A stretch of DNA of 64,000 nucleotides from Candidatus Acetatifactor stercoripullorum (lineage in GTDB: Bacteria > Bacillota > Clostridia > Lachnospirales > Lachnospiraceae), in the NCBI GenBank assembly GCA_019114005.1, contig DXGH01000010.1:6723-70722 (forward strand), in the 5' to 3' direction. The notes beneath the pieces were generated by a model. That model ran no database searches and was not told the origin of the DNA. It saw only the letters and a program-made list of their open reading frames with translations. Of the stretch, positions 55,736 through 56,642 are shown in pieces. The first letter of the stretch is position 1. Every line of letters begins with the position of its first letter. A program made the translations under genes and the position numbers.

Positions 55736-55831
55736 TTTTGCTACCTCCACGTATTTTCTGTTCTTTTTTAATCAAGTATGCTTTATAAATTTAAGCATAA
55801 AAAAAAGACCTAAATCTTATCTCGTTTGAAT

Positions 55832-55860
55832 ACTATAACACAGCAGGACGCTTCCGTCAA
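55832..55860 (-). promoter_or_regulatory. rpmG-secE-nusG promoter
   Basis: TTGACG - N17 - TATAGT with extended TG. Confidence 0.75.
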
Positions 55861-55888
55861 CTGTTTTTTCGGGGGAATCCCCGCTTTT
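55861..55888. repeat. Direct repeat copy 1 flanking the TA cassette
   Basis: CTGTTTTTTCGGGGGAATCCCCGCTTTT; internal CGGGG-N4-CCCCG palindrome. Confidence 0.9.
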
Positions 55889-55917
55889 GATATCCATCCT
55901 GCCATACATATAGGTAC

Positions 55918-56217
55918 TTATTCAAAAATCCTCATAATATCCCTATACCGATTTACCACCCGGTAAATCTCAACATACTCTTTCCCTGCCTTATAAAGGA
56001 TCACATAATTTTTCCAAACCGCGTACTTATAATCTGTTCGAAAACTGACTCTTTTGGAGAGATCAGCACCTATTTCCGGAAACATTTGAATATTCTCAAA
56101 TTTATCATAAATTTCTTTGATCGTATTTGCAGCGTATTCCGGATTATCTTCAGCAATATAATCACGAATTTCTTTTAAATCCGTTGCAACTAACGGGTTG
56201 ATTCGTAATTTCAGCAT
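55918..56217 (-). CDS. Type II toxin, RelE/ParE family
   Basis: ATDLKEIRDYIAEDNP...YVILY...VEIYRVVNRYRD. Confidence 0.9.
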   Translation of the reverse strand: MLKLRINPLVATDLKEIRDYIAEDNPEYAANTIKEIYDKFENIQMFPEIGADLSKRVSFRTDYKYAVWKNYVILYKAGKEYVEIYRVVNRYRDIMRIFE

Positions 56218-56220
56218 AGC

Positions 56221-56469
56221 CTATTCCCCCACAAGTGCTTTTAATTCGTCCAGGCTGAGCCAGCCTTCACCGTCTTTCACTGCCTCTTCCGCCTCCTGCA
56301 GCTTCATTAACAGCTTTTTCTCTGCACGATCACGCTCATAATCCTCTATATCAAGCACCACAAAACGCCCTCTGCCATTTTTCGTCAAAAACACCGGTTC
56401 CCCAATCCTGCAATTCTTTAGAACTTCATTATAATTTCTCAAATCAGATACTGGTAAAATATTCGCCAT
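56221..56469 (-). CDS. Type II antitoxin, Phd/YefM family
   Basis: ILPVSDLRNYNEVL...PVFLTKNGRGRFVVLDIEDYE. Confidence 0.92.
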   Translation of the reverse strand: MANILPVSDLRNYNEVLKNCRIGEPVFLTKNGRGRFVVLDIEDYERDRAEKKLLMKLQEAEEAVKDGEGWLSLDELKALVGE

Positions 56470-56510
56470 GTAACCCGTCTCCTTTTCTGATGCACGCTTT
56501 TACTACACTT

Positions 56511-56554
56511 AGTATATACAAAAAAACTGTAAAATTCAACTTAAAATTTTACAG
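56511..56554 (-). promoter_or_regulatory. TA promoter with palindromic operator
   Basis: TTGAAT (56539-56534) - N17 - TATACT (56516-56511); CTGTAAAATT-N8-AATTTTACAG (56527-56554) covers the -35. Confidence 0.8.
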
Positions 56555-56556
56555 CG

Positions 56557-56584
56557 CTGCTTTTTCGGGGCAATCCCCGCTTTT
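56557..56584. repeat. Direct repeat copy 2 flanking the TA cassette
   Basis: CTGCTTTTTCGGGGCAATCCCCGCTTTT; 26 of 28 identical to copy 1. Confidence 0.9.
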
Positions 56585-56642
56585 CCTTGTTTCTTCTTAT
56601 GTTTTATGCTAAAATCAGATTATGAGGAAAGGAGGCACAGCC

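Follow-up and report, generated by a model that had tools for sequence, protein, structure and literature searches.

Introduction

Insertion with long target duplication was defined for restriction–modification (RM) genes (Nobusato et al. 2000, Gene 259:99, as cited in PMC2853133), and the RM insertions that show it were later surveyed by Furuta, Abe & Kobayashi 2010 (PMC2853133). Units of this class contain no mobility genes; they lie between direct repeats that have one counterpart at the empty site and none elsewhere in the genome and that often straddle gene or regulatory boundaries, and the mechanism is unexplained (PMC2853133). A cut-off of >30 bp was chosen for the duplications in that survey so as to exclude attachment (att)-type repeats (PMC2853133). 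Duplications of 27-28 bp are made in Firmicutes by the IS1202 subgroup of insertion sequences (IS) (bioRxiv 10.1101/2022.12.17.520857). Here we analyze a small toxin–antitoxin (TA) module that lies between two 28-nt direct repeats, R1 and R2, in a stretch of 64,000 nucleotides from Candidatus Acetatifactor stercoripullorum (assembly GCA_019114005.1, contig DXGH01000010.1, positions 6,723 to 70,722 of the forward strand), which we refer to as the window. The module is inserted between the divergent promoters of the rpmG-secE-nusG operon and a FliD-like gene, and we propose that it is probably a TA member of the class described for RM genes.

Several other kinds of small unit bear comparison with this locus. 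The pdif/XerCD sites of Acinetobacter plasmids and the sites of integron cassettes are dispersed families that serve a known recombinase and many cargos. A pdif site is 28 bp long, with inverted 11-nt arms and a 6-nt centre, and occurs in many copies, the modules lying between oppositely oriented sites; an integron cassette carries an attC of 57-141 nt and belongs to an array with intI and attI. Elements of the IS200/IS605 type (HUH) and palindrome-associated transposable elements (PATEs) have subterminal hairpins of their own, cause no target duplication and have a Y1 transposase available. Cis-mobilizable elements (CIMEs) are att-flanked remnants of integrative elements, such as those with 27-bp repeats at fda in Streptococcus thermophilus, and their repeats match the attP core of known, related integrative and conjugative elements (ICEs). 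For the entry of recombinase-less TA, RM and small defence cassettes into chromosomes, the signature has been known for >20 years and a mechanism is lacking.

Results

Layout and uniqueness of the repeats

R1 and R2 are identical at 26 of 28 positions and lie 696 bp apart from start to start, enclosing an insert of 668 bp. Each contains a CGGGG-N4-CCCCG core that forms a 5-bp stem with a 4-nt loop. The identity stops at 28 bp and extends no further on either side, and dinucleotide-preserving shuffles gave zero matches as good as that between R1 and R2. The insert, whose ends read GATATCC... and ...TTTTACAGCG, comprises a 638-bp module, one filler nucleotide beside R2 and a 29-nt tail beside R1, and its GC content is 36-42%, compared with 50-54% in the flanking genes. 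R1 directly abuts the -35 of the rpmG promoter and 2 nt separate R2 from the -35 of the FliD-like gene promoter; the product of this gene matches Pfam FliD_C. A preliminary description of this DNA, made from the letters alone, had depicted an AT-rich unit of about 670 bp between 26/28-identical repeats with these cores, set against the two promoters in this way and containing a promoter, an operator with 10-bp arms, a phd-like antitoxin and a relE/parE-like toxin but no transposase or integrase; all of these features were confirmed, the genes by Pfam, the promoters by a promoter scan and by their conservation in congeners, the operator by the sequence, and the content of the insert as two genes only.

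The further genome copies of the repeat that the same description had envisaged do not exist in the assembly, in which R1 and R2 are the only copies of the 28-mer in 3.07 Mb. With up to 2 mismatches allowed, R had no match in 268 further species of the genus, a degenerate R pattern gave no match in one genome per GTDB species, and the pattern was not found in viral contigs; a single metagenome match fell within an unrelated coding sequence and was attributed to chance. Searches of other species, of viral contigs and of plasmids and phages also failed to recover R or R1', a strain variant of R1 described below, and an Rfam search of the region returned no known RNA family. Read on the plus strand, both repeats receive weak scores as terminator-like sites, and there is no plus-strand gene upstream of the repeats that would need a terminator. 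R is neither an element of the repetitive extragenic palindromic (REP) type nor a family of recombination sites; its identity as a dispersed repeat or REP was rejected on the count of two copies in the genome and zero in the 268 congeners, the GTDB species genomes and the viral contigs.

The occupied spacer in related species

Fifteen congeneric genomes have rpmG and the FliD-like gene as divergent neighbours, separated by spacers of 150-400 bp that contain no TA module. The congeners keep both promoters (that of the FliD-like gene with the pattern CTTGTTTCTTCTTAT...TGCTAtAAT) together with a T-run beside the rpmG -35, which corresponds to the left part of R and forms an A-tract upstream promoter (UP) element on the rpmG strand. 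The segment of R1 that adjoins this -35, CTGTTTTTT(CGG), is likewise kept, and on its right R borders the conserved -35 of the FliD-like promoter. G022, the nearest congener with this synteny (~83% identical in the region), has a single diverged segment of repeat length in this place, and the spacing between the promoter landmarks is 36 nt, compared with 35 nt in an allele of the window from which one repeat and the insert have been collapsed; the G022 segment forms no hairpin. Because the congeners lack the TA module and G022 holds one diverged, repeat-length spacer between the same promoters, we conclude that the repeats are of target origin and represent a duplicated piece of the native spacer that includes the rpmG UP-element A-tract. 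Collapsing R1 and R2 would restore the ancestral divergent-promoter architecture, as had been anticipated, and the spacing in G022 agrees with this to within one nucleotide.

Variation and history within the species

Four exact-match probes were used to retrieve contigs of the same species: the toxin and the antitoxin and, independently of the TA module, L33 and the FliD-like protein. They yielded about 20 distinct metagenome contigs of the species, with flanks ~99.5% identical; all are filled at the same site, and no empty conspecific allele is present among them. The empty-site allele by which the preliminary description proposed to check its reading is therefore represented in part: congeners lack the TA module and G022 has one repeat-length spacer, but no empty allele of the same species came to light.

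R1 is hypervariable against nearly invariant surroundings, with 4 haplotypes and variation at 7 of its 28 positions (contigs L025-L054). In haplotype R1' six clustered changes destroy the hairpin, and in other R1 haplotypes perfect palindromes have newly arisen (GGGAATTCCC). R2 is variable at three positions, and on the TA strand it always reads ...AAAAAGCAG where R1 has ...AAAAAACAG. A C/T polymorphism in the stem is common to both repeats, and since all four combinations are found, either conversion between the repeats or a mutational hotspot is indicated. The variation of R1 suggests conversion with R2 or quasi-palindrome template-switch mutagenesis, the switching of templates being a step that we infer.

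When a strain tree was constructed from the right flank, with three congeners as outgroup, it had little resolution and low support at the early forks; its earliest branches are strains in which R1 and R2 are identical at 27 of 28 positions, and the R1' strains are nested. This topology fits repeats that were identical at birth, and the sole fixed difference between R1 and R2, an A/G difference four bases from the R2 end that faces the insert, may have arisen when the junction formed. R1', with its 6 changes, was considered as an ancestral att-like state and rejected, its strains being nested in this weakly resolved tree. As all same-species contigs from the TA-independent probes are filled and the earliest branches have repeats that match at 27 of 28 positions, we regard the insertion as one old event.

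One nested lineage (L054:1494-2347, also L137) has a toxin gene that lacks its N-terminal 134 bp and has gained ~650 bp between the TA tail and R1', which encode a 163-aa membrane-anchored orphan (ORF163, for open reading frame) and, in L054, include a short gene fragment. Relatives of ORF163 stand directly behind Phd-ParE modules elsewhere (L193-L195) and are followed by a HATPase_c_3 gene, a context that points to a larger unit of a defence-like kind. Being collinear with TA-ORF145-ATPase units found elsewhere, ORF163 looks like a second import from a TA-ORF donor. We do not favour the ORF163-bearing allele of L054 as the original insert, given that its strains are nested and its ORF is collinear with those units. 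Other cargo between the same repeats, another check proposed beforehand, was in this sense found, but it looks like a secondary acquisition.

A 138-bp palindromic miniature inverted-repeat transposable element (MITE), bounded by terminal inverted repeats TAGGTAATTGCGAAA and duplicating ~10-11 bp of its target (L045:1475-1612), was also observed at the locus. Strains L039, L045, L050 and L054 carry it over the -10 of the FliD-like promoter (window 56609-56623). The allele of the window lacks this element, of which ~20 copies are present in the genome of the window (for example G000 C39:5851-5988).

The TA module and its relatives in other genomes

By its domains, gene order, promoter and operator palindrome, the module is predicted to be a minimal, self-contained type II TA unit of the Phd/YefM-ParE/RelE kind. 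The antitoxin gene precedes the toxin gene, with 3 nt between the antitoxin stop and the toxin start, the predicted operator overlaps the -35 of the TA promoter, and the list of open reading frames holds no other credible one within the insert. The solved structure nearest to the toxin is PDB 6x0a, a 'plasmid stabilization system'. In strain L054 the toxin has lost its N-terminus and the antitoxin is kept, an indirect hint that the antitoxin may neutralise a toxic activity.

Relatives of the toxin number 302 in GTDB genomes of other species; the best 80 of these are 78-91% identical and come mostly from Lachnospiraceae (for example Blautia, Roseburia, Dorea and Anaerostipes). At ~65 loci whose neighbours differ widely, the match in DNA to the window begins at the same base, 56555, at the outer edge of the operator palindrome, and ends at the toxin stop (55918-55922); both the palindrome and the 56555 boundary are conserved in these loci of differing context. 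The 29-nt tail had no match beside any other module copy compared. Because of the 302 loci elsewhere, the sharp ends of homology and a GC content below that of the flanks, we conclude that the module is foreign and mobile, and promiscuous among gut Clostridia. Among possible carriers, only two short matches to the antitoxin gene were found in PLSDB plasmids and none in GenBank phages.

When direct repeats were sought within 200 bp of the module ends at 64 other loci, none was found above chance, and the window scored 22, compared with 12 for the 99th percentile of mismatched pairs. Flanking repeats are not the usual look of the module, as none of the 64 loci has them above chance, and the structure in the window records one particular event.

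A metagenome contig from another organism (L035) carries the TA module at 88% DNA identity, with an identical antitoxin, palindrome arms of 16 nt and an unrelated context. Just upstream of this module lies a fragment that, read by eye, resembles the last ~17 codons of tuf, together with a hairpin (L035:2694-2745), and a DNA methylase gene is nearby; in this setting the L035 module resembles cargo carried at the att end of an integrative element that targets tuf.

Search for a mobilising enzyme

No integrase, transposase or other mobility gene is present in the insert or beside it, and the insert has neither terminal inverted repeats nor TGT/TaT ends. The criteria applied for IS1202 were terminal inverted repeats that start with TGT or T(a/g)T and a DDE transposase of 400-500 aa. 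In the genome, matches to the rve domain are confined to IS3 fragments, and two ISNCY models (ISNCY_1 and ISNCY_2) gave no match to the assembly, with the reservation that the ability of these models to detect IS1202 transposases is unconfirmed. The genome has no intact HUH transposase, only a 62-aa Y1_Tnp fragment; a co-occurring HUH transposase, for which the preliminary description had proposed to look, is thus represented by this fragment alone. Mobilisation in trans of an IS1202-like, IS1634-like or HUH kind was rejected, as no ends are shared and no matching intact transposase is present.

Other repeat-flanked cassettes in the genome

The assembly was scanned for direct repeats of 17-400 bp spaced 0.3-6 kb apart, and five cases beyond paralogues were identified (C7, C30, C68, C38 and C21; Table 1). 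Four of them (C7, C30, C68 and C38) are recombinase-less and have duplications of 23-46 bp, and their repeats are unrelated and non-palindromic, with no common terminal motif. Because the repeats of the other cassettes share neither sequence nor palindrome with R, the hairpin in R1 and R2 is a property of the duplicated native spacer, not of the cassette, and is incidental.

At C7 the repeats are a duplication of the 3' end of the deacetylase gene, and an extra 59-bp fragment of this gene lies beside one repeat and makes a composite duplication of 59 + 29 bp; in the conspecific contig L164 the TA pair of this locus has been lost through recombination between the 59-bp copies. The C30 repeats include the stop codon of a GNAT gene and lie a short way upstream of the promoter of gdpP-rplI-dnaB; sequence shared with sister species sets in at about the first base of the downstream copy, to within ~10 bases in five genomes. 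Every conspecific contig found for C30 is filled, with no empty site among them, and two exact-match look-ups for conspecific empty sites of the other cassettes gave no match. There is no integrase between the repeats of C38, where the contig ends 130 bp further on. The fifth case, C21, is a single-copy IS1634-family element, the 98-bp duplication of which implies a recent transposition with a very long stagger; its inverted repeats resemble no cassette end.

Flanking promoters and transcription

The hairpin that precedes the rpmG promoter on the TA strand is trailed by A's, and there is no intrinsic terminator there, as the preliminary description had also noted; read-through of the TA transcript into rpmG is plausible from this arrangement. 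In the 5' leader of rpmG (window 55760-55830, minus strand) we observed a block that is conserved across genera, CGAGAT..AGGTCTTTTTTTTATGCTTAAA, the TTTTATGCTTAAAT part of which mirrors the extended -10 of the FliD-like promoter (inverted repeat I3). This block could be a second promoter or an attenuator, and it has no match in Rfam.

Table 1 Features of the window (window coordinates) and the other repeat-flanked units in its genome (G000, with contig coordinates).
Feature	Position	Strand	Description
rpmG-secE-nusG promoter	55832..55860	-	TTGACG-17-TATAGT with TG extension; native; promoter scan; conserved in 15 congeneric intergenic regions
R1	55861..55888	.	Native 28-bp spacer copy beside rpmG promoter; A-tract UP element (minus strand) and CGGGG-N4-CCCCG hairpin
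Tail between toxin stop and R1	55889..55917	-	29 nt; donor-derived flank; unmatched in 80 related TA loci
ParE/RelE-superfamily toxin	55918..56217	-	99 aa; Pfam PF05016 ParE_toxin, E 7.8e-12, 46 bits (cut-off 23)
Phd/YefM-family antitoxin	56221..56469	-	82 aa; Pfam PF02604 PhdYeFM_antitox, E 1.1e-8, 35.2 bits (cut-off 29.8)
TA promoter	56539-56511	-	TTGAAT-17-TATACT; promoter scan
Predicted operator palindrome	56527-56554 (arms 56527-56536, 56545-56554)		CTGTAAAATT-N8-AATTTTACAG; 10-nt arms, 8-nt spacer; overlaps TA -35
TA promoter and operator region	56511..56555	-	Conserved module has its sharp 5' end at 56555
R2	56557..56584	.	Native spacer copy beside FliD-like promoter
FliD_C-like gene promoter	56587..56615	+	TTGTTT-17-TGCTAAAAT (-10 TAAAAT, TGC before); native
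C7	G000 C7:58457-59368 (L139:1401-2312)		Perfect 29-bp repeats; second ParE with RelB/ParD-like pair; at 3' end of polysaccharide deacetylase gene
C30	G000 C30:31279-32842 (L141:1401-2964)		Perfect 23-bp repeats; DUF6429-DUF3990-DUF3791 unit
C68	G000 C68:3308-4543 (L140:1401-2636)		29-bp repeats, 2 mismatches; 303-aa orphan without Pfam or NCBIfam match
C38	G000 C38:10359-12789 (L202:801-3231)		Perfect 46-bp repeats, 3' part of tRNA-Ser(CGA); helix-turn-helix (HTH) protein, HipS-like protein (HipA N-terminal domain) and HipA_C kinase; hipBST-like
C21	G000 C21:1763-4098 (L203)		Perfect 98-bp duplication; single-copy IS1634-family element; 602-aa DDE transposase; inverted repeats CCTGAGTTCCGAAG

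Discussion

Origin of the locus

The explanation that we prefer, and consider reasonably probable, is a single, old, recombinase-independent insertion that duplicated 28 bp of native spacer, the TA module being a member of the long-target-duplication class. The 638-bp Phd-ParE module, with 29 nt of donor flank and one filler nucleotide, would have been inserted once, in an ancestor of the species, within the short spacer that separates the divergent promoters of rpmG and the FliD-like gene. Duplication of the 28-bp spacer would have allowed each promoter to keep its own upstream copy, and both would have stayed functional. For the joining step our preference is a break at which illegitimate joining or template switching took place, possibly assisted by the palindromes of both partners, the operator of the donor and the hairpin of the target. 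Addiction to the TA module and its place before an essential operon could together explain why an allele deleted from repeat to repeat is not seen, and weak, autorepressed TA transcription could enter rpmG.

The comparisons described above demonstrate that the repeats derive from the target, that a single event took place and that neither a recombinase nor a site family is present. Several observations weigh against the fuller explanation. At 28 bp the duplication is shorter than the >30 bp required by Furuta et al. as a guard against site-specific att repeats, and 0 of the 64 other module loci show a target duplication, which is thus not the way in which the module usually enters. The single-copy state is taken from a species that is only ~83% identical, in which the spacer has diverged and lacks the hairpin, and an empty allele of the same species was not found. 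The composite duplication of 59 + 29 bp at C7 is unexplained by a simple staggered cut, and long target duplication as a label names a signature and not an enzyme.

If the locus were instead a CIME-like remnant, a phage, an ICE or an integrative and mobilizable element (IME) would have integrated at R, with an att core of ~28 bp, and later deletions would have left the TA module (with ORF163 in some strains) between attL and attR. Such a history is unlikely in our estimation, for no remnant of an integrase is present, neither R nor R1' turned up in the searches of other species, viral contigs, plasmids and phages, the 29-nt tail beside R1 is not conserved at other module copies, and the strains with extra cargo are nested, not early-branching, which makes ORF163 look secondary; on its side are the length of 28 bp, which is typical of an att core and lies below the threshold of PMC2853133, the L035 module beside a tuf 3'-end fragment in a DNA-methylase block, as in the cargo of a tuf-targeting element, the extra cargo of L054 (ORF163 and the short gene fragment) between the same repeats, and the att-like appearance of the 46-bp tRNA-Ser case (C38). 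A duplication made by a transposase, either an enzyme of the IS1202 subgroup or another long-duplication enzyme acting in trans, or an IS whose place the TA module afterwards took, would draw on the 27-28-bp repeats that the IS1202 subgroup makes in Firmicutes chromosomes (bioRxiv 10.1101/2022.12.17.520857) and on the 98-bp duplication of the IS1634-family element in this genome, by which enzymes that cut far apart are active in the host. The insert nevertheless has no terminal inverted repeats or TGT/TaT ends and its ends are unlike those of the IS1634 family, no ISNCY-type match was obtained and the rve matches are IS3 only, and the four other cassettes have no common terminal motif, so that we hold this explanation to be very unlikely.

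Less likely again is the proposal of the preliminary description that R is the recombination site of a trans-acting, hairpin-using system (like integron attC, pdif/XerCD or an HUH-like enzyme) that shuttles recombinase-free cassettes. R is 28 bp long with a 5-bp-stem hairpin, a foldable stem is kept in both copies in most strains, with a change that is G-U-compatible on the TA strand, and the C/T polymorphism shared by R1 and R2 indicates that the copies may interact. Against these stand the existence of only two copies anywhere searched, by which the test of dispersal failed; the R-like segment in the empty site of a congener, which assigns the site to the target; the lack of such sites at other copies of the module (0 of 64 loci) and the unrelated repeats of the other cassettes; the arms beyond the 5-bp stem, which are not inverted, and the direct orientation of the sites, unlike that in pdif modules; the absence of an integron (intI was not specifically searched) and of an intact HUH gene; and the decay of the hairpin in R1 of some strains. 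The proposed cassette system is not supported by these results. That the repeats are two independent terminator-like hairpins that happen to be alike is scarcely credible: each does score weakly as a terminator on the plus strand, but their identity at 26-27 of 28 positions includes the non-structural flanks, with zero such matches expected by chance, no further copy exists in 3 Mb, and there is no plus-strand gene upstream to terminate. What probability remains is left for explanations that were not considered.

A further reading has, in our view, a slim prospect of being correct: that the lineage has a dedicated insertion activity, encoded outside the cassettes, which lands promoter-to-stop addiction or defence cassettes with staggered duplications of 23-46 bp and prefers sites upstream of housekeeping operons or at gene ends. 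Were this true, it would account for the five repeat-flanked cassettes here as well as for the sharp ends of the TA module in ~65 contexts, and for the enzyme behind 'insertion with long target duplication', unexplained since 2000, this genome would offer a tractable starting point.

The locus is a clean, small example of such an insertion, with base-exact junctions, a hairpin-bearing spacer as the target and a sharply ended insert. It illustrates that a selfish module can sit before the essential rpmG-secE-nusG operon, leave the promoters of its neighbours undisturbed and become fixed in a species. Together with the four other cassettes and the 98-bp duplication of the IS1634-family element, it provides material for models of staggered breaks, template switching and homology-facilitated illegitimate recombination.

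Comparison with known systems

Like pdif modules and integron cassettes, the insert is a small recombinase-free unit of a sort that often carries TA genes and is bounded by short structured sites, and pdif sites are also 28 bp long. R differs from pdif in being unique to the locus, derived from the target, direct and limited to two copies, with a 5-bp stem and a 4-nt loop only in place of the 11-6-11 arrangement of arms and centre. In contrast to an integron cassette, the insert is not part of an array and has no attC-like element, just the target-native 28-nt repeat, with the qualification that intI was not specifically searched. An IS200/IS605-type element or PATE would bring its own hairpins, whereas here R-like sequence is present in the empty site of a congener, and the Y1_Tnp domain is represented by the 62-aa fragment only. 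The direct repeats of ~27-28 bp around integrase-free cargo recall CIMEs, but an element carrying R was not found in our searches. With the IS1202 subgroup the locus shares the length of the duplication and the host phylum, Firmicutes; it differs in that the insert has no transposase gene, terminal inverted repeats or TGT ends, and rve, ISNCY_1 and ISNCY_2 gave no IS1202-like match.

The RM insertions with long target duplication are the closest in kind. In both cases an addiction-type unit without a mobility gene is flanked by a sequence that is single-copy at the related empty site and occurs nowhere else in the genome, and that spans a regulatory or gene boundary so that the neighbours survive. 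The differences are that the cargo here is a type II TA module, that the duplication of 28 bp is below >30 bp, and that the empty site is seen in other species only. The locus belongs to a kind already described and is not a new cassette system with hairpin sites of its own; to that kind it adds exact junctions, fixation before an essential operon with both promoters preserved, and the company of four similar cassettes in the same genome.

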